Positions 7,348 to 26,472 are shown, counted from the stretch's first letter. The stretch: 26,472 nucleotides of DNA from a virus (IMGVR_UViG_2630968705_000016), one strand, 5' to 3'. The notes: generated by a model not told the origin, from the sequence alone. Translations and numbers: made by a program.

Positions 7348-7364
7348 TTCAAACATCTCCCCAA

Positions 7365-7450: not shown

Positions 7451-7512
7451 TACGGTCAGATGGGGGTACTTATGGGGGTATTTGCTGTTCGGTTTAGTGG
7501 AGGTACCCCCAA

Positions 7513-9154: not shown

Positions 9155-9358
9155 ATGGCTAATTACAATTCATTAATTCGTCTCTCTGAAGTTCAAAGGC
9201 GAACTGGTTATAGCAAAGCATGGATTTATCGTCTTATTAGTCAGGGGAGGTTCCCTAAACAGGTAAAAATTGGAAGTCGGGCAATTGCTTTTGTTGAGTC
9301 TGAAATAGATGAATGGATTGAGAAGTGTATATTAGAATCTAGAGACGAGGTGGCCTGA
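9155..9358 (+). CDS. alpA: AlpA-family transcriptional regulator / excisionase-like protein
   Basis: 67 aa; IRLSEVQRRTGYSKAWIYRLISQGRFPKQVKIG...ESEIDEWI matches the AlpA/Vis HTH pattern. Confidence 0.85.
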   Translation: MANYNSLIRLSEVQRRTGYSKAWIYRLISQGRFPKQVKIGSRAIAFVESEIDEWIEKCILESRDEVA

Positions 9359-9789: not shown

Positions 9790-9801
9790 CGGAGACTGAA
9801 A

Positions 9802-10635: not shown

Positions 10636-10807
10636 GCCGACAGGAACACCACAACCTCAAAAACGCTACAAAGATGCCCACGGAGCACTCGTTACTGTCG
10701 AAAGCGTGTCTCACAACCGAGTGACGTTTTATCGCGACGGGTATCAATCGCCATGCGTACAACCGCTGGCGCGTTTCATGAAGGAGTTCGCGGAGGTTAA
10801 CCAATGA
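10628..10807 (+). CDS. Small hypothetical protein (59 aa), possibly DUF4222-like
   Basis: ATG at 10628 overlaps the upstream stop (ATGTTTAA). Sequence MFKPTGTPQPQKRYKDAHGALVTVESVSHNRVTFYRDGYQSPCVQPLARFMKEFAEV. Confidence 0.45.
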   Translation: MFKPTGTPQPQKRYKDAHGALVTVESVSHNRVTFYRDGYQSPCVQPLARFMKEFAEVNQ

Positions 10808-11241
10808 TACCCATCCAGAAGAAGACATTTTCACTGGCTGGTATGTCGCCAAAATCCAGAAATATGACGGCAAAGTCAGGCATTAATACAGCAGATACAA
10901 GCAAAGTTTATCATTTGCTGGTGGCCGGAACGGATGCCTTAACCATACCAGAAATCTCGGGCGATGATATTAGCCTTGAGAAGGTCAGCGGCTGCGCCAG
11001 AAAATTTCTGGTCGTAGATGATGTCTTCCGCTCGTGTAGTGACTCCACAAAAACATTCGTCCACGCGCGTGACGTTAACGAAATGAGCGCGATGTACTGT
11101 GCTTCTGGTTCTTCCAATAGTGAGTTTTCGGAGTCCATAAAAAAGAGCTTGCCGTTATGCGGCAACACGGTTTATGGTTATAAGGCACCTCATAAAACGG
11201 GTGCCGGGTTTCGCAGCCCGGAAATGTACGAGGCGACACAT

Positions 11242-11263
11242 GACGCGCCGAGCGTCTTTTTTT
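11242..11263 (+). terminator. Rho-independent terminator-like hairpin plus T7 run
   Basis: GACGC-GCCGA-GCGTC hairpin (11242-11256) followed by TTTTTTT (11257-11263). Lies inside the annotated 355-aa ORF 10804-11871. Confidence 0.5.
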
Positions 11264-11465
11264 GTGCCGTTAGCCAGACTCACACTTTTTTCAGTGATGT
11301 GGTTATAATCCGCGTCGCTTGCAAAATTATGGTGGGCTGGACAGGGCAGCCGAAAGGCTGGCCGGTTTCCTTGTACGCCGGTACTGCGAACTCTGTTCAG
11401 TCCACCACCAGCGAGTTTCGCAGCTCCGGTGGTGGGAAGAATTCCCAGTACAAGGAGGCTGCCAC

Positions 11466-11660
11466 ATGCTGGCTACTACCCCTACCCAAAAACCGCAATT
11501 TATCTGGATTATCGCCGCAGTTCGCCGCGATTGCCCGACAATTACCGCCAAAATTCATCATATTGCTGCCGAGTCTGAACGCGATGCTCGCCGTTCTCTG
11601 GTGCGCGATCACGTCTGCTTTTTTGCTGGTCGTATCCGCATGGAGGTGGCACATGATTAA
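11466..11660 (+). CDS. Small hypothetical protein (64 aa)
   Basis: ATG preceded by AAGGAGG RBS; codon usage (ctg, gcc, cgc) is much more gene-like than the overlapping frame of the long ORF. MLATTPTQKPQFIWIIAAVRRDCPTITAKIHH... Confidence 0.55.
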   Translation: MLATTPTQKPQFIWIIAAVRRDCPTITAKIHHIAAESERDARRSLVRDHVCFFAGRIRMEVAHD

Positions 11661-11871
11661 AACCTACGATGTGCATATGGATCCCCTCGAACGCACAAGC
11701 CAGATCATCACACTGACAGAAGTGATTAACGACATTCTGGTGAGCAACTCTCCCTCACGAGACGAAAGACTGAAGGCGTTACTCGCGATATTGGATCTCG
11801 CCGTTCGTGACGTTCATTTCCTGCTGGAAGGTGGCGAAATGCCAGGAAAAACGGGGGCAACCAATGAATAA
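11655..11871 (+). CDS. Small hypothetical protein (72 aa)
   Basis: Internal ATG of the long ORF with GGAGGTGG RBS; overlaps the upstream stop (ATGATTAA). MIKTYDVHMDPLERTSQIITLTEVINDIL... Confidence 0.5.
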
Positions 11872-12058
11872 CTCAATTAATGCCCCTCGACTTACGTCCG
11901 CACTTCAATTAATCGAGCAAGCAGCGGCTGTCCTGGTTGCTGTCAGTCTTTCGGCTGAAGAAATGGACGCTGCTGATGTCGTGGATGCGATTAAAGCGTG
12001 CTCATCTTTGGTTAACGATGCTCGTGCAGAGCTGGTAATTCTTGGTGGTGAAAAATGA
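11864..12058 (+). CDS. Small hypothetical protein (64 aa)
   Basis: ATG at 11864 overlapping the upstream stop; MNNSINAPRLTSALQLIEQAAAVLVAV... The track ORF begins further upstream at 11807. Confidence 0.5.
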   Translation: MNNSINAPRLTSALQLIEQAAAVLVAVSLSAEEMDAADVVDAIKACSSLVNDARAELVILGGEK

Positions 12059-12318
12059 ATATCAACTTAATTTATCGTCATCCGTGTGAGCTGGAAATTG
12101 AATCATTGCTGAGCCGTGAAGAGCCATATCCAGACACATTCACTCTTGCAGATCGCACGACTGAACGGCTTACCAGGGCGCGCACAGGTCTGGTTCATGT
12201 GATGAATGAGATTCTTCCATCGGTGGGAGGGGAACAGGCGACAGTAATCACTAGCTGGCTACAAAAAGTTACCTCTCTGATAGATATCAGTTTAATCGAT
12301 GCGGAGAGTGCGAAATGA
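12055..12318 (+). CDS. Small hypothetical protein (87 aa)
   Basis: Start overlaps upstream stop (ATGA); part of a coupled run of small genes. Confidence 0.55.
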   Translation: MNINLIYRHPCELEIESLLSREEPYPDTFTLADRTTERLTRARTGLVHVMNEILPSVGGEQATVITSWLQKVTSLIDISLIDAESAK

Positions 12319-12536
12319 CCAACATCCAGCTCATTGAAGCACAATGTCGCATCGAACAGGTTCAGACTGTTTTAGGGTTCTGGCTTGAAGGGGCCAGCCC
12401 CAGCAACAGAGACAAGTTAATGATTGGCGCGGTTATGTCACTGCTCAATGGCGTACCAGAAGCTATTCAGGAAGCAGACGAATTGTTGGGCAAATATGAG
12501 TTACAGAATCATTCAGGCGAGGCGAAACATGAATAA
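12315..12536 (+). CDS. Small hypothetical protein (73 aa)
   Basis: ATGA overlap with the upstream gene; same operon. Confidence 0.55.
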   Translation: MTNIQLIEAQCRIEQVQTVLGFWLEGASPSNRDKLMIGAVMSLLNGVPEAIQEADELLGKYELQNHSGEAKHE

Positions 12537-13131
12537 TTTCTTAACTTTCCATGCAGAAGCAACGCCTGACGGCGTAAACATCATGTACCGCAGCAACGAT
12601 GGCATGACAGAACGCGTTGAGGCCGTCTCATATATTGATGCCGTAAATCGTCTGGATGCCGGGGATTATGACGATAAACCAGATGAAGGTATGTCAATAC
12701 ATCTCGCTATAGCCGATGGCGGCAACCAGGGATATTTCGATTACACATCACAGCATAACGTCATTATGTGGAGATGGCTGATCGCAACAGTATTCATGCT
12801 GGAAATGAGAGAGGAAAACGGCACTGTCAGCATCATTGATGATACTGGCAACCCTTCCGAAGTGGCTGTTTATTCCAACGGCATCGTCGCCATGCCGCTG
12901 TATCCAGTAGCAGAGCGCCTCGCTATGGCAAACAACATTGAGGGCGCGATGATAGAACGTTTTGGCATCGAGTCTGGCACAGAACGCGCCATCATTTTCT
13001 ACAGAGCCATGATGGATGTGGAACAAGGAGCACTGACTCCATTTGGTCGTGAAACGCTTGCTGAACTTCACAACAGCTTTATAGCTGAACTGAATGAAAA
13101 CGGCATGCCAGCGGAACCAGTGACGCACTGA
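12526..13131 (+). CDS. Hypothetical protein (201 aa)
   Basis: ATG at 12526 overlapping the upstream stop (ATGAATAA). The track ORF begins upstream at 12424, but that would overlap the previous gene out of frame. Confidence 0.6.
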   Translation, partial: NMNNFLTFHAEATPDGVNIMYRSNDGMTERVEAVSYIDAVNRLDAGDYDDKPDEGMSIHLAIADGGNQGYFDYTSQHNVIMWRWLIATVFMLEMREENGTVSIIDDTGNPSEVAVYSNGIVAMPLYPVAERLAMANNIEGAMIERFGIESGTERAIIFYRAMMDVEQGALTPFGRETLAELHNSFIAELNENGMPAEPVTH

Positions 13132-13141
13132 GGATGGAACC

Positions 13142-13483
13142 ATGATTACTAAAAATTTCCGACTGAATGCGCTGGCAAATAAGTATGCGTCGGCACTGTA
13201 TAACCACATTACCTCCACCAGCGGCGGGGACTATTTCATGGTTGATGCGGACGGCGAGGCCGTCCGTGTGGAAATCGTCAATGGAGTAAAAGGCGTTCGC
13301 AGCCTGATCGATAGCTACACACTGGCAGCCATGAAAGTGTTCTACCCGCAGTGGGAAACCGTGGGGATCGAGCTTCTTGATCGTTGCGTCACTAAGGACG
13401 GATTGACTGACGTCGGGCGTGAGATATGGCAAAGCATGGTTAATGACATGGGCGCAACTGTAGCGGGAGGTTCTCATGCGTGA
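13142..13483 (+). CDS. Hypothetical protein (113 aa)
   Basis: ORF with GAGGATGG context upstream; the stop overlaps the next start. Confidence 0.6.
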   Translation: MITKNFRLNALANKYASALYNHITSTSGGDYFMVDADGEAVRVEIVNGVKGVRSLIDSYTLAAMKVFYPQWETVGIELLDRCVTKDGLTDVGREIWQSMVNDMGATVAGGSHA

Positions 13484-13847
13484 AAATGCAGAAATGGCGC
13501 TTAGCTCCGCAATCGGAGAGCAGGTGGCAAAGATTGCTGGTGCTGTGTGGATTCATAACCTTCATTCTACTGGTGAAGAGAAAATGGCAATTCAGACGCC
13601 AGAGGGACGCATCATTACTACATCTCTGAAGCCGTCAGATGTTTGTGATCTGATTTGCGCATTCATGTACCCAGCAATGAGGACTGCCCACGGCGATAAG
13701 TGGAAACTTGCGACAACCGCTGAATTTGATATGTGGCTAAACAATGATGGCATGCTGACTGATTACGGAATAACCAAGTGGCAGATGCTGGTTAGCCATA
13801 TCGCAAACGCTATAGACCACGTGGGGTACGGTGATGCGAAACATTGA
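13476..13847 (+). CDS. Hypothetical protein (123 aa)
   Basis: ORF with GGGAGG RBS upstream; 3' end overlaps the primase start. Confidence 0.6.
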   Translation: MRENAEMALSSAIGEQVAKIAGAVWIHNLHSTGEEKMAIQTPEGRIITTSLKPSDVCDLICAFMYPAMRTAHGDKWKLATTAEFDMWLNNDGMLTDYGITKWQMLVSHIANAIDHVGYGDAKH

Positions 13848-16590
13848 TCTTATCCGTCAGGTTATCAGTGCGTCTGAAAACAACTGGCCTCATGTGCTGG
13901 GCTGCCTGAACATAAATGTCCCTGACTCTCCGCGCCGTCATGCTCCCTGCCCTGCATGTGGGGGCAAAGATCGATTCCGGTTCGATGACAACGGGCGCGG
14001 TAGCTTCATCTGTAATCAGTGCGGCGCTGGTGATGGGCTGGATTTAATTAAACGCGTAAATAACTGCGACACAACAGAGGCGGCGCTTCTTGCCGCTGAT
14101 GTTCTGGGTATTGATTACCGGACAACGGAAACACCAGAAGCCACCAGCCAGAAACGGGAACAACTGGAAACCGAGCGCCAGCGACGCGAACAGGAGCGCC
14201 TGAAAAGGGCAGAGAAGGACGAACAACAAAGACGGGATACGTTTTCCCGTCAGTTTGATGACATGCGCAGAAAGGCTGTAAACGGCAAATCTGATTATCT
14301 GGTTGCGAAAGTGGTAGGTGATTTTACATTCCCCGTGTTGCCCGATGGATCTCTGTTGCTGGCGCTGGTGGATAAATCCGGCGCAGTCACAGCAGCACAG
14401 ACTATTACCTCACATGGTGAAAAAAGACTCCTGACAGGTTCAGCAAAGCGGGGGGCATATCACGCCATAAACGCACCAGAAACAACACAGAGCATCTTAA
14501 TCGCAGAAGGGCTGGCAACGGCATTATCTGCCCATTTAATTCGTCCAGAGGCGCTGACAGTGGCGGCGATTGATGCCGGGAACCTGTTATATGTCGCCCA
14601 GGTACTGCGGGATAAATATCCTTCAGCACAAATCATCATTGCTGCGGATAACGACCACAGCGAAGGAAGACAAAACACGGGGAGAATAGCAGCAGAAAAA
14701 GCAGCTTTATCTGTTTCTGGATGGGTGGCATTACCCCCGACAGATCACAAAGCAGACTGGAATGATTACCACCAAAAACACGGCATTAAATGCGCCACAG
14801 AAGCGTTCAATAAGTCAATGTACCAACCACAGGGTAATGGCGTGAAACAGGAGCCACAGACCATTGAGGGAAGCGATTTTAAGGTTATGGATACCGACCC
14901 ACTGAAACCAAGAATAGAAAGCCGCGAGGATGGTATTTATTGGGTATCTCCGAGAGCTGACAGCCAGAGTGGAGAAATCATCAATAACGAAAGCTGGTTA
15001 TGTTCTCCGTTAAGCGTTATCGGTACTGGCAGAGACGATAAAGACCAGTATCTCATTCTTCGCTGGCTGTCGTTTGGTTCTGAAACGCCGACAACCGCTG
15101 CCATTCCACTGGCTGATATTGGTGAACGTGAAGGATGGCGCACACTTAAAGCTGGTGGGGTAAATGTCACGACCAAAAGCAGCCTCAGAGCAATACTGGC
15201 AGACTGGCTACAACGCAGTGGCTCTCGTGAATTGTGGCGTGTTGCTCATGCCACTGGCTGGCAATGCGGAGCGTACATCATGCCTGATGGGGAAATCATC
15301 GGAACACCTGAAAATCCTGTGCTGTTCAGCGGGAGAAGCTCAGCCGCAGCCGGATATACCGTCTCAGGGAGCGCGAAAAGCTGGCGTGATAACGTGGCGC
15401 GTCTGGCCTTTGGTAACTATTCAATGATGACCGGGATCGGCGCAGCACTGGCAGCGCCATTGATTGGGCTGGTGGGCGCTGACGGGTTCGGCATTCATTT
15501 CTATGAGCAGTCGAGCGCAGGTAAGACCACCACGGCAAACGTGGCGAGCAGCTTATACGGCAACCCTGATTTACTGCGGCTGACGTGGTACGGAACCGCG
15601 CTGGGGCTGGCAAATGAGGCCGCCGCCCACAATGACGGACTAATGCCGCTTGATGAAGTTGGTCAGGGCGCTGATCCTGTCAGCGTTTCACAGTCTGCCT
15701 ATGCGTTATTTAACGGTGTAGGGAAACTGCAAGGCGCTAAAGATGGTGGAAACCGGGATCTAAAACGTTGGCGTACAGTGGCAATCAGCACCGGAGAAAT
15801 GGATTTAGAAACATTTATCGCTACTTCCGGGCGAAAAACCAAAGCCGGGCAACTGGTGCGACTGCTGAATATTCCGTTGAGTAAAGCAGTACGCTTTCAC
15901 GATTACCAGAACGGAAAACAGCACGCAGACGCACTGAAAGACGCTTACCAGCATCACCACGGCGCGTCCGGGCGTGAGTGGATTAAATGGCTGGCAGACC
16001 ACCAGCAACAGGCTATTAAAACCGTTCGTGATTGCGAAAGCAGATGGAGAAGCCTGATCCCATCCGATTATGGTGAGCAGGTTCACCGTGTAGCCGCGCG
16101 ATTTGCCATTCTGGAGGCCGCATTGTTGTTAGGCGAGGTTGTAACAGGCTGGGATGCTCAGACATGCCGTGATGCGATACAGCACAGCTATAACGCATGG
16201 TTGCGTGAGTTCGGCACAGGTAACAAAGAGCATCAGCAGATTATTGAACAAACGGAGGCATTTCTTAATGCCTATGGGCTTAGCCGTTTTGCACCATTTT
16301 CATACAGCCCGGCAGATTTGCCCATCAAAGATTTAGCCGGATACCGTCAGCGTGGAGAACATGACGAAAGCCCAATGATTTTCTACACATTCCCGGCCAC
16401 ATTTGAAAAGGAGATCGCATGTGGTTTCAACGCAAAACAGTTTGCTGAAGTGTTGAAAAAAGCCGGGATGCTAACCCCACCAAACAGCGGTCGTGGATAC
16501 CAAAGAAAATCACCACGTATTCAGGGACGACAAATAAACGTTTATGTACTCAATTACCAGCCAGGAGATTATAACTCATCTGAAGAATGA
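13831..16590 (+). CDS. Primase-helicase (P4 alpha-like: zinc ribbon + Toprim primase + P-loop helicase)
   Basis: 919 aa. CPACGG...FICNQCG zinc-binding motif; Toprim-like AEGLATA and IIIAADNDHSEG (DxD); Walker A SSAGKTTT and Walker B-like LMPLDEV. Start could be the GTG at 13831 or the ATG at 13834. Confidence 0.9.
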   Translation: MMRNIDLIRQVISASENNWPHVLGCLNINVPDSPRRHAPCPACGGKDRFRFDDNGRGSFICNQCGAGDGLDLIKRVNNCDTTEAALLAADVLGIDYRTTETPEATSQKREQLETERQRREQERLKRAEKDEQQRRDTFSRQFDDMRRKAVNGKSDYLVAKVVGDFTFPVLPDGSLLLALVDKSGAVTAAQTITSHGEKRLLTGSAKRGAYHAINAPETTQSILIAEGLATALSAHLIRPEALTVAAIDAGNLLYVAQVLRDKYPSAQIIIAADNDHSEGRQNTGRIAAEKAALSVSGWVALPPTDHKADWNDYHQKHGIKCATEAFNKSMYQPQGNGVKQEPQTIEGSDFKVMDTDPLKPRIESREDGIYWVSPRADSQSGEIINNESWLCSPLSVIGTGRDDKDQYLILRWLSFGSETPTTAAIPLADIGEREGWRTLKAGGVNVTTKSSLRAILADWLQRSGSRELWRVAHATGWQCGAYIMPDGEIIGTPENPVLFSGRSSAAAGYTVSGSAKSWRDNVARLAFGNYSMMTGIGAALAAPLIGLVGADGFGIHFYEQSSAGKTTTANVASSLYGNPDLLRLTWYGTALGLANEAAAHNDGLMPLDEVGQGADPVSVSQSAYALFNGVGKLQGAKDGGNRDLKRWRTVAISTGEMDLETFIATSGRKTKAGQLVRLLNIPLSKAVRFHDYQNGKQHADALKDAYQHHHGASGREWIKWLADHQQQAIKTVRDCESRWRSLIPSDYGEQVHRVAARFAILEAALLLGEVVTGWDAQTCRDAIQHSYNAWLREFGTGNKEHQQIIEQTEAFLNAYGLSRFAPFSYSPADLPIKDLAGYRQRGEHDESPMIFYTFPATFEKEIACGFNAKQFAEVLKKAGMLTPPNSGRGYQRKSPRIQGRQINVYVLNYQPGDYNSSEE

Positions 16591-16615
16591 GCTTCTTCAT
16601 GTGCGTAGAAAAGGT

Positions 16616-16726
16616 GTTGGTTCAGTTGGTTCAGTTGGTTCAATTTGTAAAGAGTATTGTTTTATAATGATTTTATTCTTTTTATTGAACCAACACTGAA
16701 CCAACAACACGGTATTTTGAACCAAC
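16616..16726. repeat. Iteron cluster 1 (putative replication origin)
   Basis: Three perfect tandem GTTGGTTCA 9-mers (16616-16642), an AT-rich spacer, then three TGAACCAAC inverted copies (16686-16694, 16697-16705, 16718-16726). Begins 26 bp after the primase stop. Confidence 0.75.
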
Positions 16727-17046
16727 ACAATGTGACTGAATTGATGCGCACAACACCTGGCTGGCATCAGAGAGTGTTTTACGAGACTTTCGTAAAATCC
16801 TGTGTACAAGGGCGTGACGTTTTTGAAAGTGAGCACTACGAAATTTTCGTAGTTCAAAAAACAGCCTCTGAGAAGTTGTTATGCCTGTTCAGCAAACCAT
16901 CCGCATAGCTGATCGCGAATCAAATTACCAATGGAGCCAGAAGCAAGGGCAGAACTGAAAAGCGCCTGCCGTGAAGAGTAATGCGACACCATAAATATAG
17001 TTTTTAGAGTCCATAAAAAACCTGTCAAAACCTGACACACAGAACG

Positions 17047-17080
17047 ATGCCACCAGCTACTGAGCGGTGGCATTTTTTTG
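17047..17080 (+). terminator. Rho-independent terminator
   Basis: Perfect 8-bp stem ATGCCACC/GGTGGCAT with an 11-nt loop, followed by TTTTTTT (17074-17080). Confidence 0.7.
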
Positions 17081-17174
17081 TGCTATTTGTTTCATATTTT
17101 GCAATTACGATGATGAATATTGCGATTTGTGAAACTATAATAACTGTTGTTTTATACAGTTCTAAGGGGGCGTT

Positions 17175-17336
17175 ATGGCTATTTCAGTAAAGCCGGTATT
17201 GATAAGTGAGAAGCAAATGGAAGCGATAAAGAAAATTCAGGAAGAGCAGCGTAAAAAATCAGGAATTGGAGTAGCGCCAACTCTGCATGAAATTGCACGA
17301 GGGTTAATAGATAAGGCGCTGGCAGGCTGTATGTGA
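17175..17336 (+). CDS. Small hypothetical protein (53 aa), possible DNA-binding regulator
   Basis: Strong RBS AAGGGGG 5 nt upstream of ATG; MAISVKPVLISEKQMEAIKKIQEEQRKK... Not on the ORF track because it is under 60 aa. Confidence 0.5.
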   Translation: MAISVKPVLISEKQMEAIKKIQEEQRKKSGIGVAPTLHEIARGLIDKALAGCM

Positions 17337-17352
17337 AAATGGATGGCATCGC

Positions 17353-17814
17353 ATGGAACTAAAATTTATTGATAACCCTGTGCGATTACAGGCCTTTCTT
17401 AACGAGCCAGGCAATACCGAAAATATTGTTGAGCCGGGGCACACGTACTACATCAAGCCTGATGCGGTATATCTCGGCATCTACGAAGGATTAGTGCTGG
17501 CTGGCGTTCATGAAGTGCGTAACTTCTGGCATAGCGTTGTTGAATGCCATGCGGTGTACGACCCCGGATTCCGTGGTGAATATGCACTGCAAGGGCATCG
17601 ATTATTCTGCAAATGGCTTCTCGAAAACTCACCATTCCTTAACAGCATTACCATGGTTCCTGACACCACCAAATACGGACGGGCAATTATCCGTTTGCTT
17701 GGCGCTACCCGTGTTGGTCACCTTGATGATGCTTATATCAGATGTGGTAAACCCGTCGGCGTAACGCTTTATCAGTTAACTCGGCAACAATATAAGGAAT
17801 TCAGCGAATGTTAA
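17353..17814 (+). CDS. Hypothetical protein (153 aa), first gene of the ejection-like cassette
   Basis: ORF coupled to the downstream gene (ATGTTAA overlap); no domain recognised. Confidence 0.7.
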   Translation: MELKFIDNPVRLQAFLNEPGNTENIVEPGHTYYIKPDAVYLGIYEGLVLAGVHEVRNFWHSVVECHAVYDPGFRGEYALQGHRLFCKWLLENSPFLNSITMVPDTTKYGRAIIRLLGATRVGHLDDAYIRCGKPVGVTLYQLTRQQYKEFSEC

Positions 17815-18485
17815 TTACCCACATAGCTCATAAACATCTCAATCGTGCCGTATACGAAAAAGGCGGTGATGGTGGTGCCTCTAAAGCTCAGGCGAAGGCC
17901 CAGCAGCAGGCAATTGATTTGCAGCGCGAGCAGTGGAATACGGTGATGAATAATCTCAAGCCGTATGCAGAAGTCGGATTGCCTGCTTTACAACAACTAC
18001 AAGGACTGATGACTCTGGAAGGGCAGAATAAAGCCGCGAATGATTTCTTTGGTTCTGGTTTATATAAAACACAGGCAGATCAGGCCCGTTATCAGAACCT
18101 TGTCTCAGCAGAAGCTACCGGGGGGCTTGGCTCAACAGCTACCAGTAACCAGTTATCTTCCATTGCGCCCATGCTTTATAACAATTGGCTCAGTGGGCAA
18201 ATGCAAAATTATGGAAACCTGCTAAATGTCGGGATGAATGCGGCATCAGGGCAGGCAACGGCAGGGCAAAACTACGCCAATAATACCGGACAACTCTTGC
18301 AGGGGCTTGGCGCTATTCGTGCAGGTCAGGCGCAGCAGCCATCCAGTCTTGCGCGTGGTATTGGTGGGGCAGCATCAGGCGCTTTAGCGGGTGCGCAACT
18401 TGGTTCCGTTGTTCCTGGAATAGGAACTGCGGCCGGCGCTATTGGTGGTGGGCTTATTGGTCTTGTTGGGGGGCTTGGATTCTAA
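17808..18485 (+). CDS. Hypothetical protein with glycine-zipper-like C-terminus (225 aa), internal-virion/ejection-like
   Basis: Q/A/N/G-rich; C-terminal GIGGAASGALAGAQLGSVVPGIGTAAGAIGGGLIGLVGGLGF suggests a membrane-inserting glycine zipper. Coupled to flanking genes. Confidence 0.75.
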   Translation: MLITHIAHKHLNRAVYEKGGDGGASKAQAKAQQQAIDLQREQWNTVMNNLKPYAEVGLPALQQLQGLMTLEGQNKAANDFFGSGLYKTQADQARYQNLVSAEATGGLGSTATSNQLSSIAPMLYNNWLSGQMQNYGNLLNVGMNAASGQATAGQNYANNTGQLLQGLGAIRAGQAQQPSSLARGIGGAASGALAGAQLGSVVPGIGTAAGAIGGGLIGLVGGLGF

Positions 18486-19804
18486 TGGCGACATGGCAAC
18501 TTGGCGGGCTGCCTAGCATGGCACCGCAAAATGATAATGCTCCTCGTTCTTCCGTTCCTCAGCCTGTGCAGTATCAGCAGCAGCCAAACGTAGGTTTAAT
18601 GGCGCTACAGGGGCTAAGAGGCGTTGCTGAGATTAATCAGCAGGCGCAAATTTCCCAGCAGTTAAAAGAATATCAGGCACGGTTGGGTAGTGCGGTAGCT
18701 AATAATGATCGTGTTGGCGTGCAGAAGTTAATGGCCCAGTATCCCCAGTTTATGGCTGATTCTCAAAAACAGATGGGATTCATTGATGCTGAGCAAAATC
18801 GACAGACCGCTGACGCTGCCATGAATCTGCGTCTTGCGTCACAAACTGGAGATCCACTGACCATGCAGAAGGCCATTCAGCAGGCAAATCCAGTATTACA
18901 GCGATTTGGTCTTCCTGCTGAAGAGGTTTATCAGTCTTGGCAGAATGACCCACAGGAATTCAACAGAATCACTGACCTCATCCACCTCCATGCTGATCCA
19001 AATAGTTACTTTAGTGTTCAAGAGAAGCAGCAAGGGCAGAGCATTGCACAGCAGAACGCAGATACATCCGCATATAATGCTCAGGTTAATGCGGAACAGG
19101 GTAATCGACGTCTCGATATGGAGCAGTTCAAAGTCCTATCCGATAACCAACTACGCACGAGAGAAATGGTTCTGAAAGCACGACTTGGACGTGCTCAAAA
19201 TGACATCGAGAGAGACAAGCTCAATGCTGAACTGAGCAAGATACAGCAGGCGAAAGTGGAGAAGATGAACGATAAAATTAATACTGTTGCAGGTAACATC
19301 GACTCCTTGAACTCTGCGCTTGAAGTGGGTCATGAACTGGCGGGAATTGTAGGGAAACATCCTTCGGCCGTTACCCGCTCGCAGAACTATAACCCCCTGA
19401 CGCTGGGGTTTGGATTCCTTCCTGATGTAGCAGAAGACACACGAAGCCTACGCGCCAAAGCTGATGAATACAACCTAAAGGTTATTCTGCCTAGCCTCAA
19501 AGGGACTTTTGGCTCTAACCCAACCGAAGGGGAAAGGGCTGCCCTTATGCAATCTCAAAATGGCATTAAGTCAGCAACCAGCAATGAGGCATTTTTGCGA
19601 GAGTTGAATAAAGCGCAGGACGTAATTATTCGAATGCAGAAACGACAGATTGCCGGGCTCGGTATTCCTGTAACCAAATCTAAGGACGAAGAAACTGATA
19701 CCAAAATGCTGTTGCAGGATCCTTCACTGGTTAAGGATTATGTGACCGCACATGGCTATCTGCCGGAAAGTTACTATCAGGCAAAACTTAAGGGATGGCA
19801 ATGA
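18485..19804 (+). CDS. Hypothetical Q-rich protein (439 aa), internal-virion/ejection-like
   Basis: Start overlaps the upstream stop (TAATG); low-complexity Q/N/A-rich composition typical of phage internal core proteins. Confidence 0.8.
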   Translation: MATWQLGGLPSMAPQNDNAPRSSVPQPVQYQQQPNVGLMALQGLRGVAEINQQAQISQQLKEYQARLGSAVANNDRVGVQKLMAQYPQFMADSQKQMGFIDAEQNRQTADAAMNLRLASQTGDPLTMQKAIQQANPVLQRFGLPAEEVYQSWQNDPQEFNRITDLIHLHADPNSYFSVQEKQQGQSIAQQNADTSAYNAQVNAEQGNRRLDMEQFKVLSDNQLRTREMVLKARLGRAQNDIERDKLNAELSKIQQAKVEKMNDKINTVAGNIDSLNSALEVGHELAGIVGKHPSAVTRSQNYNPLTLGFGFLPDVAEDTRSLRAKADEYNLKVILPSLKGTFGSNPTEGERAALMQSQNGIKSATSNEAFLRELNKAQDVIIRMQKRQIAGLGIPVTKSKDEETDTKMLLQDPSLVKDYVTAHGYLPESYYQAKLKGWQ

Positions 19805-22521
19805 TGGCACAACTGACAGAAAAACAGAAAGCCTATTCCCGTCATCTCGATGAAAAATATGGTTTCCCATCAGGGACGATGGAAACATTAGTTGGCAATG
19901 AATCTAGTGGTAACGGAAGTGCCGAGTCACCGAAAGGAGCTAGAGGATTTGCTCAACTGATGCCCTCAGTAATGAGTGATGCTGGTTATCGTGGAACAGA
20001 TCCGCGCTCACTGCCATTTGAAAAGCAAATGGATATCGCAGCAAACCATCTCAATAAAGGAATGAAGCGATTTGGTGATATAGGTATGGCATTGGCTGGG
20101 TATAATTCTGGCTATGCTCGTATTAATGCCGTCAGAAACGGTAAATCTACACTGCCAGATGAAACGGCTAATTACGTAAGTAAATTTGCAGATGCCGGAA
20201 TAATCCCTGATGACAGTGAAATCTTGCAGTTTGCACAAACCAGTCAACATCGCAATCTTCAGCAGCCTGACTACTCAGAGCTTGATAAAGAAATCTCTCA
20301 GGTGGGAGATATTTCTGCATGGGAAGCAAAACGTCAGCAATTTAAGAACATAGAAGCAGGACTACCAACAGCCAGTTCATGGGAGCAGAAAAGAGCTCAG
20401 TTTCTCGCCGATGAAAATGCCGGGGAACCGCAGCAGCAAGTAGCCAAGTCTAACCTTAATCCTGAGATGGAATATCTTTCGCCAGGACTGAAAGCTGCGC
20501 CAGAGCAGATGGCCAGAGGGATTGCTAATATACCGTTTGATGTAATGGACGCAGGCGTGGGGGTAGTCAATGCGGCGCAATCAGCCGGAGCATGGGCAGC
20601 TCAGAAGCTTGGTGTGGGTGATGGCACATACACGCCCATATCACCTGTCTTTCGCCCAGTAGACCAACCTACAGATCCATACGCGCAGGCTGGTGAGCAG
20701 CTAGCACCTTACCTTATTACAGGATTAGGTGTAGGAAAGGCAGCTACCGCAGCTTCTTCAGTTGCCAACGCTCCACGTGCTGAACGTGCGGCCACAAAGG
20801 TGGCTAGTATGTTGGCAGAAAACCTGCCAGGTACATTGGTGAACGCCCAAAAGAACGGGCAGATCAGCCCAGAAGACCTAGCAAAAGAGACAGGTATTGG
20901 CCTAGCAGGATCGCTAGGAGCACGCGCTTTAATAAAGAGCGGACAGACAGCCAGTGACGTAATGCGAGATGTATTGCGGAGTAATACAAATCAATCAGGC
21001 CATGTGTTAGGGGCAGCAAATACTCTGGAAACCGCCAATGATGTATCGAAAGCAGCGCGTTCTGCCGTAGGCCGAGAGCATATCGCATCGCAGGCATCAA
21101 ACGTCAGAGATGATGTCGCTAAGGCGGCGAAAATCACTGGTATTAATATCAACACCCTGACGCCTGGAATGCGCTCAGGTAGTCGTGGAATTGCCCAAGC
21201 AGAAGGTGTTCTGGCATCAACTCCTGGGAATGTTCAGGATGCTCACCTTACGGCCTTCAATGAAATATCCTCAAAGTTGAATAAGCAGTTGTCTGATTTC
21301 GGTGCTGAGTCTGGAAGCGCATCAGAAAAAAGCGCAGCAATTAAAGAGCGCATCATCGCGAGCCTCAGTGATATGAAAACAGCAGAGAATATGGCATGGG
21401 CAGAACTGCGAAGCACGATGCCACGCGAAAGGATGAAAATGAGTAATGGGATGGCTGTCGTCCAAGCAGAAAAAGCAGCCAATGTTCCACTCAGCCCGGA
21501 GATGAAACAGTTTCAGGCTGCCAACAACCAAGGTGGCGGCATAACCTTCGACGGGATGAAGGCATGGCGTGCTAAGTTTGCTGATGCTGAACAAGCAAAC
21601 ACCCGGGCAGGTAAGGCCAATGCCGCCCGGATTGCCGGAGAAATGCGCAGAGCTATCACTGATGACATGCGCATCATGGCTGAAAAAGGAAACTTCCTCA
21701 CAGAATGGCAGAAAGCTAACGATCTCTCTAAAAGTTACATTATCGCCAAACAAAATGCCGAATCTGTTTTTGGTCGAGATCTCGCATCAGACGCTATGGT
21801 AAGAAAAGGTGCCGATACGCTTAAGGCATCCGCAAACACTGGAACGGGAGCTTTTCACCGTCTTATCTCCGCGCTGCCGGAAGCAGAACGCCAACCTGCA
21901 ATAGCATCTATTCTTCAGCATGCTGTGGCGCAGGGAGAGAAGGGAGGAATCGGTGAAGAGTCAGGTATCCAGTATTTTGCCAAGCTCATGACCCAGCAGA
22001 ATGTAAACGCCATCAGTCGTCATGCGCCAGATCTCGGTAGAATGATGAAAGAGTTCGGTGTACTCGCTAAAGCCAGTACCAGACCGCAGCGATACGTAGA
22101 GCGCACGGGAAGAACAACTGAGGCTCTCAAAACGCTCGATTCAGGCCTTCCAAAGATCGTCGGCGTGATTATGAACGGTGTTCAACAGTCAGGTGCGATC
22201 GCTGGAGGCTTTGGCGGTGGTGTAATTGGTTCGATTAGTGGTTTGGTTGCTGGTGGCGCGCTAAGAAATGCTGTGGCTAAGATTGGGGCGACAAGAAGTG
22301 GTCGATATGCGATAGAGAAAGCCGTTCAGGAAGCTACAAAAGCAGTGCGCGCAGGGGCATCACCAGCAGCGATCGCCGCAGCAGAGAAACGATTTTCGGC
22401 CAATAAAATTGCCATGAAAGCAATTCGTGATGCCGTTGGGGCTGAAGAATTCGTGAAACTGACAAGGGCCGGGATTGTAGCTACCCTCAGTGGCATGAAA
22501 GATGTTAGCGAATGGGAATAG
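19795..22521 (+). CDS. Large protein with N-terminal lytic transglycosylase (SLT) domain (908 aa), T7 gp16-like architecture
   Basis: N-terminal motifs ESSGN (catalytic Glu context), GFAQLMP and AGYNSGYA match SLT family signatures. The remainder is long and A/G/Q/S-rich with a glycine-rich segment (GAIAGGFGGGVIGSISGLVAGG) near the C-terminus. Confidence 0.88.
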   Translation: MAMMAQLTEKQKAYSRHLDEKYGFPSGTMETLVGNESSGNGSAESPKGARGFAQLMPSVMSDAGYRGTDPRSLPFEKQMDIAANHLNKGMKRFGDIGMALAGYNSGYARINAVRNGKSTLPDETANYVSKFADAGIIPDDSEILQFAQTSQHRNLQQPDYSELDKEISQVGDISAWEAKRQQFKNIEAGLPTASSWEQKRAQFLADENAGEPQQQVAKSNLNPEMEYLSPGLKAAPEQMARGIANIPFDVMDAGVGVVNAAQSAGAWAAQKLGVGDGTYTPISPVFRPVDQPTDPYAQAGEQLAPYLITGLGVGKAATAASSVANAPRAERAATKVASMLAENLPGTLVNAQKNGQISPEDLAKETGIGLAGSLGARALIKSGQTASDVMRDVLRSNTNQSGHVLGAANTLETANDVSKAARSAVGREHIASQASNVRDDVAKAAKITGININTLTPGMRSGSRGIAQAEGVLASTPGNVQDAHLTAFNEISSKLNKQLSDFGAESGSASEKSAAIKERIIASLSDMKTAENMAWAELRSTMPRERMKMSNGMAVVQAEKAANVPLSPEMKQFQAANNQGGGITFDGMKAWRAKFADAEQANTRAGKANAARIAGEMRRAITDDMRIMAEKGNFLTEWQKANDLSKSYIIAKQNAESVFGRDLASDAMVRKGADTLKASANTGTGAFHRLISALPEAERQPAIASILQHAVAQGEKGGIGEESGIQYFAKLMTQQNVNAISRHAPDLGRMMKEFGVLAKASTRPQRYVERTGRTTEALKTLDSGLPKIVGVIMNGVQQSGAIAGGFGGGVIGSISGLVAGGALRNAVAKIGATRSGRYAIEKAVQEATKAVRAGASPAAIAAAEKRFSANKIAMKAIRDAVGAEEFVKLTRAGIVATLSGMKDVSEWE

Positions 22522-22671
22522 ACGCTCTAACTAACAAAACCATAATAGCCAAGGACGGCATACTGATATTGAGCCAACTATCAAAATTCCATATCACATT
22601 ACGAGCCTGTGGCTTACATTCGCTTACAGTGATGATAATTTATAACCACGCAATTCTTAGGTGAGATTATC

Positions 22672-23370
22672 ATGATTAAAAATCTTCTTTTAATATTATC
22701 CCTGTCATTATTGGCTGGATGCGTACAAAAACCGTTAGTAACGGTCAATGCTTTATCTTCCGGGCAATCTGTCGGTAAGAAGTTCTTGATCATCCCCGCA
22801 AGCCAAGAACTTTGGAACACCAAACAGATTGAATACACTCAAATAGCTACGGTAGTAGCCGCCAGTTTATCAAGCCAAGGATATACACAAGTTAAAGATG
22901 AAAAATTGGCTGACCAGGTAATTCTCTTGAACTTTTTGAGAAGTGGGGCCATTTCAAATACTCGTAATGTAACCATCCCAATATACGGGCAAACTGGTGT
23001 GAGCTCAGCAACAACGTACGGAAACTCGAACACCACGTTCAATAGTTATGGTGGTGGCTACGGTACAGCTAATACCACTGGAACGGCAACAACAGTTTAT
23101 ACGCCTACTTATGGAATTACTGGCGCGTATAACACAACTGTGACGGACACGTTCTACGGCGCAGGGGTGATACTCCAGTCGTTTGATGCCAAGGCTTATC
23201 TCAATAATCGGCAGATTAATATGTTATGGAAAGTTGGTAGCTCAGTCGTCTCGCAACAGTCTGATGGAATTGCTGATTACAAAGGGTTGGCGAGAATAGC
23301 CGCTAGCTATGCCGGGAAAAATACAGAAGGTGATATAACTTTTAATGTTGACCCTAAAGCACCAAATTAA
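22672..23370 (+). CDS. Putative lipoprotein (232 aa)
   Basis: Signal peptide with lipobox LLAG|C; AGGTGAG RBS; T/G/N/Y-rich central region; lower GC than neighbours. Confidence 0.8.
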   Translation: MIKNLLLILSLSLLAGCVQKPLVTVNALSSGQSVGKKFLIIPASQELWNTKQIEYTQIATVVAASLSSQGYTQVKDEKLADQVILLNFLRSGAISNTRNVTIPIYGQTGVSSATTYGNSNTTFNSYGGGYGTANTTGTATTVYTPTYGITGAYNTTVTDTFYGAGVILQSFDAKAYLNNRQINMLWKVGSSVVSQQSDGIADYKGLARIAASYAGKNTEGDITFNVDPKAPN

Positions 23371-23377
23371 CTAATAA

Positions 23378-23427
23378 GCCCGGTACGCCGGGCATTCATG
23401 CCCCTATTATTCATGAATCGCTTTTTC
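23378..23427 (+). terminator. Terminator-like tandem hairpins downstream of the lipoprotein gene
   Basis: GCCCGG-TACG-CCGGGC hairpin (23378-23393), then ATTCATG...CATGAAT hairpin (23394-23418), followed by CGCTTTTTC. Confidence 0.4.
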
Positions 23428-23584
23428 TGGAAGGTATGCGACAAACGTTAAGTGACATTGCCTACACATTCGGGGCTCAAATCCGCTCCCAGTTGATGGG
23501 GCCGTTACAGTACGCGCATATCCGCTTTATGTGAAACAGGAAGATTTTTCTGATATCACTGCCACAGCAAAACACCAATTTCGA

Positions 23585-23600
23585 GACAAGTACGCGCGCG
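23585..23600. repeat. GACAAGTACGCGCGCG motif, copy 1
   Basis: Exact 16-mer with an alternating (CG) tract; a degenerate copy (GACCAGTACGCACACG) follows at about 23638-23653. Confidence 0.6.
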
Positions 23601-23870
23601 AGGGGTATCAGTTGCAAAATTTTTTGCAACTGCGTCCGACCAGTACGCACACGATGGCGGGGGATACCATAAAAGTGTTCTCTACATGAGACAGAGTGGT
23701 GGTGATGTGTTGATTATCGGCGTATATGCGCACAGGACGCGCTATGACAATGTTTTATGCGGGTACACCAATCACATGTATCTGACGTGATAAATCGCGT
23801 TACATGACATCTCATGTTGTGCTGGTGGTTATCACGACGTTCTGAATCTGGCCTTTGCCTGATATTTTGC

Positions 23871-23886
23871 GACAAGTACGCGCGCG
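23871..23886. repeat. GACAAGTACGCGCGCG motif, copy 2
   Basis: Exact 16-mer in the context ATTTTGCGACAAGTACGCGCGCGTAGCATC. Confidence 0.6.
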
Positions 23887-23914
23887 TAGCATCGACAGCA
23901 TACACATTGGATAT

Positions 23915-24136
23915 TCATTTTGTGACCAATGCGATAAGTAGCGGGATAAGAATTGATAAAATCAACAGGCCGATGATCCACTTTTGATTTTCACTGGCCT
24001 TATCTCTATTTTCATCAATCTTATCAATAATTCGACGCTCCAGGCCGTGCATATCACCGCGAATGGCAATCATCTCATTGCGAACATCCGAGAAGTGGTT
24101 GGCTTGATGTTCAATGTGTGGCGTTCTGCCTTTCAT
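23915..24136 (-). CDS. Small putative membrane protein (73 aa)
   Basis: AGGTGAGGA RBS on the minus strand; charged N-terminal region and C-terminal hydrophobic helix WIIGLLILSILIPLLIALV. Confidence 0.5.
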   Translation of the reverse strand: MKGRTPHIEHQANHFSDVRNEMIAIRGDMHGLERRIIDKIDENRDKASENQKWIIGLLILSILIPLLIALVTK

Positions 24137-24215
24137 TCCTGATCCTCACCTATCGTCACCACCTGCTGGTGTATAAAGGTATTGGCCCAAGCAGCTTTCC
24201 AATGGGCACTCATGT

Positions 24216-24671
24216 TTATACGCTGACCTTACAATCAATCACCGCTTTTAACTTTTCAGCATTGCTTCCCTGACGCTTCCACGCGCTGTAAATATCTTTA
24301 TCCCACGCTTTACCAGCTTTTGTTTGATAGCCTGCTTCATTGATCCGTTCAGCTATCACACGCCCATTATCAAATCCCTGTCGGATGGTATCGGCAATGA
24401 TCTTTATAACTGCCGTTTCGTTATATGGCTTTGGTGGGATGTTCGGCTTTCCGGCAATAAGCGACGCAGCAGCTTTTTCCATGCGCTCCACCAGCCCAAG
24501 CATTCGTGAATCAATAGACTTTTCCGGCTGTCCCAGCTTCATGCGAATCGCATCAACAAGCCAGGAGGTTTTATCCCCTCCAGAAGCGAGAACAGACCGA
24601 TTAAACTCATCCTGCAATTCAGATGGGATGCGGAACGCGACCAGATTAGATTTGCTCATTGCAAAGACCAT
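24216..24671 (-). CDS. Putative DNA-binding regulatory protein (RHH-like N-terminus), 147-151 aa
   Basis: N-terminus SNLVAFRIPSELQDEFNRSV...SWLVDAIRMKL has a beta-strand/helix/helix pattern; start is ATG at 24671 or 24659. Transcribed divergently from the PerC-like gene, with iteron cluster 2 between them. Confidence 0.65.
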   Translation of the reverse strand: MVFAMSKSNLVAFRIPSELQDEFNRSVLASGGDKTSWLVDAIRMKLGQPEKSIDSRMLGLVERMEKAAASLIAGKPNIPPKPYNETAVIKIIADTIRQGFDNGRVIAERINEAGYQTKAGKAWDKDIYSAWKRQGSNAEKLKAVIDCKVSV

Positions 24672-24773
24672 ATCAGTGAGTAATATCCATACAGTATATC
24701 ACTGTATAACACTGTTATACGCTCAAATATCAGCCAGAAAATAACGGGCCAATCACAAAGCTATCGCTGTGTT

Positions 24774-24894
24774 GTTGGTTCAGAGCTGGGCTGTGTTGGT
24801 TCAAAATGAGTTGATGTTGGTTCAATATTTTAGAAAAAACATAATAAAAACAACAATCTTTACAAATTGAACCAACTGAACCAACTGAACCAAC
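24774..24894. repeat. Iteron cluster 2 (inverted copy of cluster 1)
   Basis: GTTGGTTCA at 24774-24782, 24795-24803 and 24816-24824; AT-rich spacer; three tandem TGAACCAAC at 24868-24894. Its reverse complement aligns with cluster 1, with about 45 bp identical at the tandem end. Confidence 0.75.
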
Positions 24895-24930
24895 ACCTTT
24901 TTGCTTATCTATATAATCTGAGAGGCAGAA

Positions 24931-25212
24931 ATGATAAGGGACAGGAAAGCTGAAGAGCTGGAGTCAAAAGGGCTATACCGGAGAGCTGCCGCACGATGGA
25001 TGGAAGTCATGCTGTTATGCAGCGAGGACGATGATCGGGAATGGATAAAGCGCCGCCGTGAAACGTGTCTGGAGAACGTGAAGCGCCCGCCCGTGAAGGT
25101 TGAGGAATTTGGCGACCTGCATAAAGCTGTTACCGAAACGCAACACCGCATGGGGATAGCGCAACCGAACGGTAACGCCTTCCGGTTAAATGGCGGTAAG
25201 AGGCAAAGGTAG
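24931..25212 (+). CDS. PerC-family transcriptional activator-like protein (93 aa)
   Basis: GAGAGG RBS; MIRDRKAEELESKGLYRRAAARWMEVM... matches my recollection of the PerC/Pch N-terminal signature. Confidence 0.7.
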   Translation: MIRDRKAEELESKGLYRRAAARWMEVMLLCSEDDDREWIKRRRETCLENVKRPPVKVEEFGDLHKAVTETQHRMGIAQPNGNAFRLNGGKRQR

Positions 25213-25260
25213 ACCACCAGAGGGAAATCATCCTCTGGCTGGCGGTTTCTGGTATTTCGG

Positions 25261-25278
25261 GACAAGTACGCGCGCGCG
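25261..25278. repeat. GACAAGTACGCGCGCG motif, copy 3 (one extra CG unit)
   Basis: GACAAGTACGCGCGCGCG in the context TATTTCGGGACAAGTACGCGCGCGCGTAGCACC, sharing about 30 bp of context with copy 2. Confidence 0.6.
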
Positions 25279-25509
25279 TAGCACCCAATCGGTGAGGAAA
25301 TAGCGGCGACCTGAATGGTCAAAATCACAACGCAGCTATCCCCGTAAGCAGCGCTTAACGGAATAGCAGTAACCTGAATCCAGTGGGGAGGGGGTAGTCA
25401 AATCTCTACAGCCCTGACTATCCGGGACTGCCCGCCCCATCGTTTTTTTATACCCGCGAAAAATGAAATTTAATCCGGGCGTGTTTCATCCTTCCAGAGG
25501 GTATGACGT

Positions 25510-25695
25510 ATGACACCACGCGAAATAGCTTTATTGACCACCGCCAAACTGGAGCACGAAGGCCACCAGCTAACCCCGGCAGATCAACGGGAGATAGAAC
25601 GCTCAGTTAATGCCAATATAGCCCGGCGTGACAAATTTCGCGAAATGATGCGATCACCCGCCTACCAGTGGAAGAAGCCTGCGCCGCGCAGGTAG
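25510..25695 (+). CDS. Small hypothetical protein (61 aa)
   Basis: ORF with AGAGGG upstream; basic protein; no domain recognised. Confidence 0.45.
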   Translation: MTPREIALLTTAKLEHEGHQLTPADQREIERSVNANIARRDKFREMMRSPAYQWKKPAPRR

Positions 25696-26016
25696 ATTAC
25701 CTTTATTCACCTTTATATATTCGAACAACAAAACCTCTCGCAGGTCTCGCCAATAAAGGGATATAGCAGTAACTATGACCGCCGAATGGCAAAGCTACGA
25801 TGCAAGTCGCTGGTTTCCAAACTTGAGGTTTCCAGGACGGTTTCAACCAAATTGCGGATTATCAGCCAAACGCACCGGGTATCTTGCGCGGTGGATGGTG
25901 AGCCATCACGCAGAATCTTTAAATGGCATTTTACGATGGGCAATACCCGTGGTTATATGCGATTATTAACGGTAGTGGACAGTTATAGACGAAAACATAC
26001 GGCAGGAGATTGGATA

Positions 26017-26472
26017 ATGGCAGTTACAACCCTTAACAGCGTAGCGGATTACCTGCTTTGCTTTGCTCAAGAGCATGGGGATGTTATGACGCCGCTGAAA
26101 CTGCAAAAAATGGTGTTCTATGCTGATGCTTGGTTCATGGCGCTGAATGATGGCGAAGAACTGGTTGCTGACAAGTTTGAAGCATGGGTACATGGCCCTG
26201 TAGCCAGAGATTTGTATACCAGATTTGCAGATTACAAATGGCGCTCAATAGACGAAGAGATTGCCTGCCCTGAGTTACCTGCGAATGTGTCAAAGCATCT
26301 AAAGGAAATCTATGAGGTATTTGGCGGTTATACAGCTTATGAGCTGGAGCAGATGACGCACCAAGAAAAGCCGTGGCTGGAGGCCCGTGAAGGGGTTCCA
26401 TCAGATGCGCCGTGCAAGAATGTTATTGATAAAAGTGTAACGGCTGAGTTTTATCGTTCGATGGCTTCCTAA
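26017..26472 (+). CDS. Panacea/DUF4065-domain protein (SocA-like phage-associated antitoxin family), 151 aa
   Basis: AGGAGA RBS 8 nt upstream of ATG at 26017; LKLQKMVFYADAWFMALNDGEELVADKFEAWVHGPV resembles the DUF4065 core. The longer track ORF from 25786 has an implausible N-terminal extension. Confidence 0.7.
   Translation: MAVTTLNSVADYLLCFAQEHGDVMTPLKLQKMVFYADAWFMALNDGEELVADKFEAWVHGPVARDLYTRFADYKWRSIDEEIACPELPANVSKHLKEIYEVFGGYTAYELEQMTHQEKPWLEAREGVPSDAPCKNVIDKSVTAEFYRSMAS

Follow-up and report, generated by a model that had tools for sequence, protein, structure and literature searches.

A Panacea-type antitoxin gene at a sequence edge and its putative RelE/HigB-fold toxin partner in a phage-like thrW island of E. 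coli

The panA gene and its surroundings

The window, by which we mean the whole stretch of 26,472 nt that was analysed, ends with an intact gene for a Panacea-domain protein, here called panA. By direct reading, the gene starts with ATG at 26017-26019, and its stop codon TAA (26470-26472) forms the final three bases of the window. The features at this end, together with the partner gene panT that follows in complete genomes, are listed below.

25510..25695, + strand: gene for a 61-aa hypothetical backbone protein (WP_001371755.1, RefSeq), the last before the cassette and outside the module
25698..26016, + strand: left end and 319-nt leader of the panAT cassette, placed by the homology break at 25697 and by comparison with empty sites
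25700-25715 (5942-5957 in the empty island L090), no strand assigned: 16-nt motif CCTTTATTCACCTTTA at the left cassette boundary, present in filled and empty islands
25775..25969, + strand: W-rich 64-aa ORF inside the cassette leader, not a gene
26004..26009, + strand: Shine-Dalgarno sequence AGGAGA, 7 nt 5' of the panA ATG, read directly
26017..26472, + strand: panA (151 aa, WP_001371753.1), complete gene for a standalone Panacea-domain antitoxin (PF13274)
26470..26472, + strand: panA stop codon TAA, followed in complete genomes by AT and then the ATG of panT
26475-26909 if the window continued, + strand: panT (144 aa, WP_032283080.1, 'hypothetical protein' in RefSeq), at 13676-14110 of the E. 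coli locus L001

A longer in-frame ORF of 228 aa opens at 25786. It was rejected as the real start of panA because the homologues in eight other loci start at the equivalent methionine (MAVTTLNSVADYLL...). The AGGAG at the Shine-Dalgarno position is kept in most of the aligned panA loci.

The initial annotation had called a DUF4065 (Panacea) gene at 26017-26472, a call that would have fallen had no profile of this family matched. In the HMM search, Pfam PF13274 (SocA_Panacea, formerly DUF4065) matched residues 29-120 of PanA with E=8.4e-18 and 65.8 bits, where the gathering cut-off is 25.7 bits, and the match spans profile positions 1-112 of 113. The call was thus borne out. The match is far beyond chance and, as judged from its sequence, panA is a genuine Panacea-type antitoxin gene; the RefSeq name of WP_001371753.1 is likewise 'Panacea domain-containing protein'. 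The architecture of PanA is the standalone ('noNTD') one, with PF13274 as the sole significant Pfam family, and no HTH, PAD1, ZBD or Phd-C accessory domain was found in Pfam, NCBIfam and PADLOC searches. A Pfam match to Hamartin (E=0.096) stayed far under its own cut-off. The NCBIfam model SocA_antitoxin matched PanA with E=4e-16 and 59.2 bits (equivalog cut-off 190), and PADLOC-DB v2 gave no match.

The panA promoter presumably lies in the 319-nt leader. Scans for promoters, terminators and repeats found no consensus sigma-70 site on its + strand and no operator, and the leader has no Rfam match and no unusual structure (fold z-score -0.76). The approximately 170 nt directly 5' of panA (window 25845-26016, L001 13046-13217) are about 85% identical to Enterobacter sp. 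BIGb0383 (L005 2360-2527), beyond which E. coli and this strain differ by large indels; these 170 nt are not conserved in other panAT loci. In several other loci a terminator-like hairpin was found 120-150 nt 5' of panA, which suggests that the panAT pair is its own transcription unit.

Since the W-rich ORF at 25775-25969 stays open for 64 codons and lies no more than 50 nt from panA, and toxin-first PanAT loci exist (PMC8832971), we considered it as a toxin partner in toxin-first order. However, the near-identical Atlantibacter island (L004) has an in-frame TAA at codon 6, the ORF has no counterpart 5' of panA in L006-L009 and L087-L089, and it has neither a Pfam match, or membership of any other family, nor a RefSeq annotation. 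The Atlantibacter stop codon and the absence elsewhere rule it out as a gene or partner, which leaves the toxin-first reading with practically no chance of being right. The doubt about this ORF that had been voiced from the window sequence was justified.

The cassette and the thrW island

The panAT cassette measures 1.25 kb and separates two backbone genes of a phage-like thrW island into which it is inserted. In megablast, coverage is lost at query position 898, equal to window 25697, immediately 3' of the stop codon that closes the 61-aa backbone ORF. Islands that match the window as far as 25697 and then diverge, with no panAT, are carried by several hundred E. coli genomes. In the three panAT-less islands inspected (e.g. 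L090) the 61-aa ORF is followed by 116 nt and then by a PRiA4_ORF3 gene, whereas L001 has 1253 nt (leader, panA and panT) between the same two genes. Comparison of the filled and empty sites therefore identifies panAT as a discrete cassette in variable island cargo, which ends about 41 nt 3' of panT. The boundary motif CCTTTATTCACCTTTA contains ACCTTTAT twice, 10 nt apart, and may be a recombination or insertion hotspot.

The island itself starts at window 7302, inside a 3' half-copy of the tRNA-Thr gene thrW (7302-7347); ARAGORN found no intact tRNA in the window. Positions 1-7301 are a different element with a pinE invertase, an IS3 transposase and hypothetical genes, and not one of 5,426 complete E. 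coli genomes has them joined to the island. The junction inside the thrW half-copy, with a separate element at 1-7301, implies that the source strain carries elements in tandem at thrW. The genes of the island code for an integrase, an AntA/AntB antirepressor, an Ash-family protein, a P4-like TOPRIM/DUF927 primase, PerC, a few small ORFs and P22-like ejection proteins (DUF2824, a 439-aa ejection protein and a 908-aa lytic transglycosylase). It reaches about 2 kb past the window (to about 15300 in L001), with no capsid or tail genes annotated, which makes an odd, satellite-like set.

At the other side of the cassette, L001 14154-15048 holds a gene of the PRiA4_ORF3 family (180 aa, Pfam E=6e-42), which shares 8 nt with a 119-aa ORF convergent to it. 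These two form the conserved right end of the island family, with or without panAT. Diverged panAT copies are located in other PerC-bearing islands next to yejO, or adjoining IS66, and the 119-aa ORF recurs near the copies at the yejO site. We considered PRiA4_ORF3 as a third component of the system and ruled it out, as it belongs to the island backbone, is found without panAT and is missing from other panAT loci. The 119-aa ORF is likewise not conserved with the pair in the loci compared.

The partner gene and its conservation

Inside the window panA has no visible partner, as the initial annotation had stated, but this does not hold beyond it. The chromosome of E. coli APEC E19025 matches window 24800-26472 with 100% identity, and window 7302-25000 likewise; at least 80% of the 24800-26472 stretch is present in 23 complete E. 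coli genomes. In L001 positions 13671-13678 read TAAATATG, so that the gap between panA and panT is 2 nt. Because panT starts 2 nt past the window in window-identical genomes, the missing partner is an artefact of the window cut, and nothing further need be invoked to account for an antitoxin that seems to lack its toxin. The suggestion that the real partner would lie past the window end thus proved correct, in the form of a 144-aa ORF 2 nt after the panA stop whose pairing with PanA is conserved across phyla. The sequence after 26472, examined in window-identical E. coli genomes, provides a toxin-antitoxin-like context and not a clearly different one.

Of the 5,426 complete E. coli genomes, 23 match a panA-plus-panT query with 100% coverage and an identity of 99.9% or more, and panT is intact in all 23 that carry this panA. 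Four further genomes have copies at 68-73% identity. In E. coli APEC E19025 panT is followed by the PRiA4_ORF3 gene, the convergent 119-aa ORF and then the island end, which adjoins a LysR fragment and paoD. The locus is, by gene content, an ordinary two-gene toxin-antitoxin cassette with a putative toxin, halved by the window boundary.

We then looked at the pairing outside E. coli. A scan of one genome per species gave 365 loci encoding panT relatives, and the best 80 of these were analysed. They come from Enterobacterales, other Gammaproteobacteria, many Cyanobacteria, Thermodesulfobacteriota, Binatia, Longimicrobium and Chitinophagaceae. In 79 of the best 80 loci tblastn with the window PanA found a homologue directly 5' of the panT relative on the same strand; in the 80th a contig end leaves only 59 nt of 5' sequence. 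The extrapolated distance between the two genes is -46 to +44 nt in 78 of the best 80, while the 79th (L055) has a distance of +452 because its best match is the first of two tandem panA copies. In Nostoc carneum the 5' gene carries PF13274 and overlaps the panT homologue by 20 nt. The two genes lie within 100 nt of each other in at least two species, which is the arrangement used as the FlaGs criterion by Kurata et al.

The tandem arrangement of L055 (Hormoscilla sp. SP12CHS1, 1971-2873) consists of two panA copies with 38% and 37% identity to the window PanA, followed by a single panT homologue.

Across the best 80 loci, homologues closer to the E. coli PanA tend to be paired with homologues closer to the E. 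coli PanT (r=0.67 between the two identities). Against the diverged E. coli copies, pN of both genes is 0.09-0.23 at saturated pS of 0.72-0.92 (for panA 0.09-0.17 and 0.72-0.77), which means that panA and panT are under strong purifying selection. On the grounds of adjacency, co-variation and selection we treat panA and panT as one module, and its conservation is close to certain.

The initial annotation had also considered that panA might be a solo anti-defence gene or antitoxin decoy, a reading in which we include an orphan antitoxin without a cognate toxin. This would fit the view from inside the window, where no partner is seen, and there is a cyanophage with a truncated panT whose PanA, of the same family, is functionally solo. 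For the E. coli gene it was not borne out: an intact panT lies 2 nt 3' of panA in 23 of 23 complete E. coli genomes, and the two genes are paired in 79 of 79 testable loci. We regard the solo reading as hardly tenable here.

The cyanophage is Cylindrospermopsis raciborskii virus RM-2018a (MH636380.1), which at 1483-2448 of L086 carries an intact panA of the same family as the window PanA. Its product is 46% identical to the window PanA and 63-68% identical to the cyanobacterial PanAs of PanAT loci. Of panT only the first approximately 65 codons are present, and the frame then runs into the annotated CRISPR array of the phage. Since the antitoxin is kept with a truncated toxin, this panA is a candidate for an anti-defence gene directed against PanAT. 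A similar PanA match occurs in Cylindrospermopsis phage Cr-LKS4. When the phage collection was searched with the window end (megablast) and with panT (tblastn), nothing was found; PanA alone has phage homologues.

Predicted fold and candidate activity of PanT

A word-indexed search found 209 relatives of PanT, all unnamed and without Pfam domains. With a profile of 50 PanT relatives, a search of 1.84 billion proteins yielded 1,262 cluster representatives at E<=1e-3. Neither PanT nor any of the 50 relatives matched Pfam at E<=1, and PanT is accordingly in none of the 13 Pfam families of the RelE/ParE group (RelE, YoeB, HigB, HigB-like, MqsR, YafQ, YafO, YhaV, BrnT, gp49, DUF4258, ParE-like and ParE). 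A 2025 survey of the RelE/ParE superfamily also counts 13 Pfam families and mentions no Panacea-linked one (PMC11980606). PanT and the family profile had no sequence match in the PDB. PADLOC-DB v2 gave only NsnC for PanT (E=0.027), and the pair is not listed there as a defence system. The one family model that reached PanT was NCBIfam NF046006 ('MAG6450 family'), with 30.3 bits for the E. coli protein and 29.5 bits for P0001; all 50 relatives matched it at E<=0.01, with a best E of 1.7e-9. By these profile matches NF046006 is related to PanT, yet PanT is not a member by the curated rule, which sets the cut-off at 40 bits.

An AlphaFold2 model built from the 50-sequence alignment had a mean pLDDT of 81.7. 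In the model, a basic disordered N-terminus (residues 1 to about 27) precedes a core of one strand, two helices, a loop region, a three-stranded sheet and a C-terminal tail. Foldseek placed Proteus vulgaris HigB at the top (probability 0.97, TM 0.56 on the target, 18-21% identity), with RelE, YafQ and YoeB next in that order; against viral predicted structures there was no significant match. The predicted model has the RelE-like alpha/beta fold, on which two methods agree with no competing fold. The scores are moderate and belong to a predicted structure, and on this basis PanT very probably has a RelE/ParE fold of the RelE/HigB (BECR) kind.

Across the 50 PanT sequences, which share 41-83% identity, 23 positions are invariant. 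They include His82 in 'HPIxW', Arg119 and His121 on the central strand 'GR[VI]HGFF', and Asp135, His138 and Tyr141 in the tail motif 'WLDPxHxLY'. In HigB, His54 acts as the general base, Arg73 stabilises the transition state and Asp90, Tyr91 and His92 are located at the C-terminus (PMC5027501). We aligned the PanT family with HigB by hhalign, using a HigB sequence verified against PDB entry 4mct. The alignment, topologically sensible and not significant (probability <1%), put His82 on His54 and Arg119 on Arg73, and it is only in this alignment that the invariant His82, Arg119, Asp135, His138 and Tyr141 stand opposite or near the HigB catalytic residues. Alignments of the PanT profile with single HigB, YoeB and RelE sequences were also not significant. 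We infer that the most likely activity of PanT is that of a HigB-like ribosome-dependent mRNase, to which we give about an even chance.

The same fold is used by ParE, and PanT could be a DNA-gyrase poison, with a different target from the one just named. Yet the RNase members RelE, HigB, YafQ and YoeB scored higher in both structure searches, and the invariant His, Arg, Asp, His and Tyr, including those in the C-terminal tail, are at positions that resemble the HigB active site. In addition, the HHpred label given by Kurata et al. to the related toxin cluster is 'mRNase'. A gyrase-poisoning PanT is therefore very unlikely, and we keep the ribosome-dependent mRNase as the preferred activity.

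Relation to described PanAT pairs and comparison with known systems

PanA and PanT pairs were defined by Kurata et al. 2022, who predicted 1,268 pairs with 88 toxin clusters and validated ten, including an earlier B. subtilis pair; none of the ten validated toxins comes from cluster T1 (PMC8832971). T1 appears to be the largest PanT cluster, as it is listed first; its pairs have a noNTD PanA in antitoxin-first order, its toxins have no CDD match and carry the 'mRNase' label, and its members include Mollicutes (PMC8832971). The T1 member from C. cadaveris was toxic and was not neutralised by its own PanA, while the partners from E. coli MOD1 and Salmonella phage Emek were scored 'not toxic' (PMC8832971).

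We compared the PanT family with these proteins by hhalign. It matched the Emek partner (YP_006560566.1) with 95.7% probability and E=9e-9, and an alignment of 20 Emek-type proteins with 97.0% and E=1e-10 over 111 columns, the two matches together spanning 106-111 columns. From these scores, PanT and the Emek type are distantly homologous families (about 23% identity), and PanT thus has homology to a listed T1 member. The Emek type has no equivalents of PanT Arg119, His121 and His138 and ends in 'LYxH'; its invariant residues are Arg130, Lys135, Arg141, Tyr158 and His160, against His82, Arg119, His121, His138 and Tyr141 in PanT. The Emek-type profile gave no significant alignment with HigB.

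A 147-aa E. coli protein with 99% identity to the Emek partner would share 20 nt with its panA, which equals the gap of -20 listed for MOD1. The MOD1 partner is therefore probably of the Emek type, nearly identical to the Emek protein, and not a member of the panT family. Three genomes with the panT family each list one T1 pair in the part of Kurata Dataset S1 that was covered; the listed gaps would fit in-frame ATT codons in two of the three and nothing in the third, an ambiguous comparison. The accessions of E. coli panA and panT do not occur in the covered portions of the dataset. The panAT module appears to be related to T1 by homology, a placement made through the Emek protein and, for the dataset portions covered, not by accession.

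In Salmonella phage vB_SemP_Emek (L085, P22-like) the PanA gene and its Emek-type partner are located at 1495-2368, directly after the DNA-transfer (ejection) gene and before mnt/arc, in the moron region. This is the same relative position as that of panAT in the thrW island.

The results on Emek and MOD1 leave room for a conserved pair in which PanT is not a classical self-poisoning toxin. It would rather be a latent effector that only a specific trigger, for instance a phage protein, activates through PanA as a sensor, or have a non-toxic function, and simple overexpression of PanT would then do nothing. The lack of toxicity of both partners when overexpressed in E. coli speaks for this, as does the location of panAT in variable cargo of a phage-like island and of the Emek pair in a moron region after ejection genes. 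However, the Emek type is a diverged sister family (about 23% identity) without equivalents of Arg119, His121 and His138, and for this reason the Emek and MOD1 result transfers poorly; as the MOD1 partner is taken to be of the Emek type, the two 'not toxic' results bear weakly on the panT family. Moreover, the C. cadaveris member of T1 is toxic, and an invariant His, Arg, Asp, His and Tyr with tightly coupled translation, as seen here, is what active type II toxins usually have. We consider a latent or non-toxic PanT unlikely.

Our preferred reading is that the window ends in the antitoxin half of a PanAT cassette and that PanT is a putative toxin neutralised by PanA, which we hold with a probability of about 0.65. 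Complex formation of other PanAs with their toxins has been reported (PMC8832971), and standalone Panacea domains are reported to neutralise their toxins directly, with Panacea proposed as a sensor (Ernits et al. 2023, PMC10440598). By analogy with the standalone Panacea proteins of these two studies, PanA would bind PanT directly and keep it inactive. When PanA is lost or triggered, PanT would arrest growth through a HigB-like acid-base cleavage of mRNA at the ribosome, for which the family-invariant His82, Arg119 and the C-terminal Asp135, His138 and Tyr141 are the proposed catalytic set. The cassette may serve island maintenance, abortive-infection defence or both.

A bolder version, in our opinion doubtful, would make the PanT family an unrecognised fourteenth branch of RelE/ParE and a phage-triggered abortive-infection effector with PanA as its sensor, carried as a plug-in island cassette and countered by phages with the antitoxin alone. 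If this were true, the cyanophage, whose panT is cut off by a mini-CRISPR array while its family-specific panA is intact, would show a naturally occurring case of anti-defence by antitoxin alone.

The PanT family has approximately 1,260 cluster representatives, is strictly linked to PanA and has no Pfam model. It is related to the apparently largest predicted PanT cluster, of which no member was validated as a toxin-antitoxin pair in Kurata 2022. The E. coli panAT, on a defined 1.25-kb cassette with natural empty sites, is a convenient test system in which RelE-like toxicity, neutralisation by a standalone Panacea protein and phage defence could be probed.

Compared with known systems, NF046006, named for a Mycoplasma agalactiae gene, matches the C-terminal half of 50 of 50 PanT relatives, but PanT stays at about 30 bits, below the 40-bit cut-off, and no function is on record for MAG6450. 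With SocAB, the type VI toxin-antitoxin system of Caulobacter in which SocA is the founding Panacea protein, PanA shares the Panacea domain. PanA nevertheless scores far under the SocA equivalog cut-off (59.2 against 190 bits), and PanT has no match to SocB. SocA is a ClpXP adaptor that promotes degradation of the toxin, whereas the other tested PanAs bind their toxins directly (PMC8832971).

The predicted core fold of PanT is that of HigB, RelE and YoeB, and like them it is a small protein encoded in a bicistronic unit with a putative neutralising partner. The conserved His ahead of the beta-sheet, the Arg of the central strand and the C-terminal Asp, His and Tyr recall His54, Arg73, Asp90, Tyr91 and His92 of HigB. 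Unlike these toxins, PanT is not significantly similar in sequence to any of the superfamily's 13 Pfam families. It also has an extra basic disordered N-terminal segment of about 27 aa, and about 25 residues (HPIxWxxTSExxGF) are inserted between its helix 2 and its strand 2. Its antitoxin is a Panacea protein and not HigA, RelB or YefM.

The closest likeness is with PanAT cluster T1 (Kurata 2022). Both have a PF13274 PanA of about 150 aa without an N-terminal accessory domain, the antitoxin gene first, genes that overlap or lie a few nt apart, and a hypothetical partner of about 140-160 aa without a CDD or Pfam match. The taxonomic spread, as far as the T1 entries covered show it, is also similar, with many cyanobacteria. 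The panT branch differs by its about 23% identity to the Emek type and by its other invariant residues. Taken with the predicted structure, panAT appears to be a PanAT pair of a known kind, an additional member related to T1, with a toxin of predicted RelE/HigB fold.
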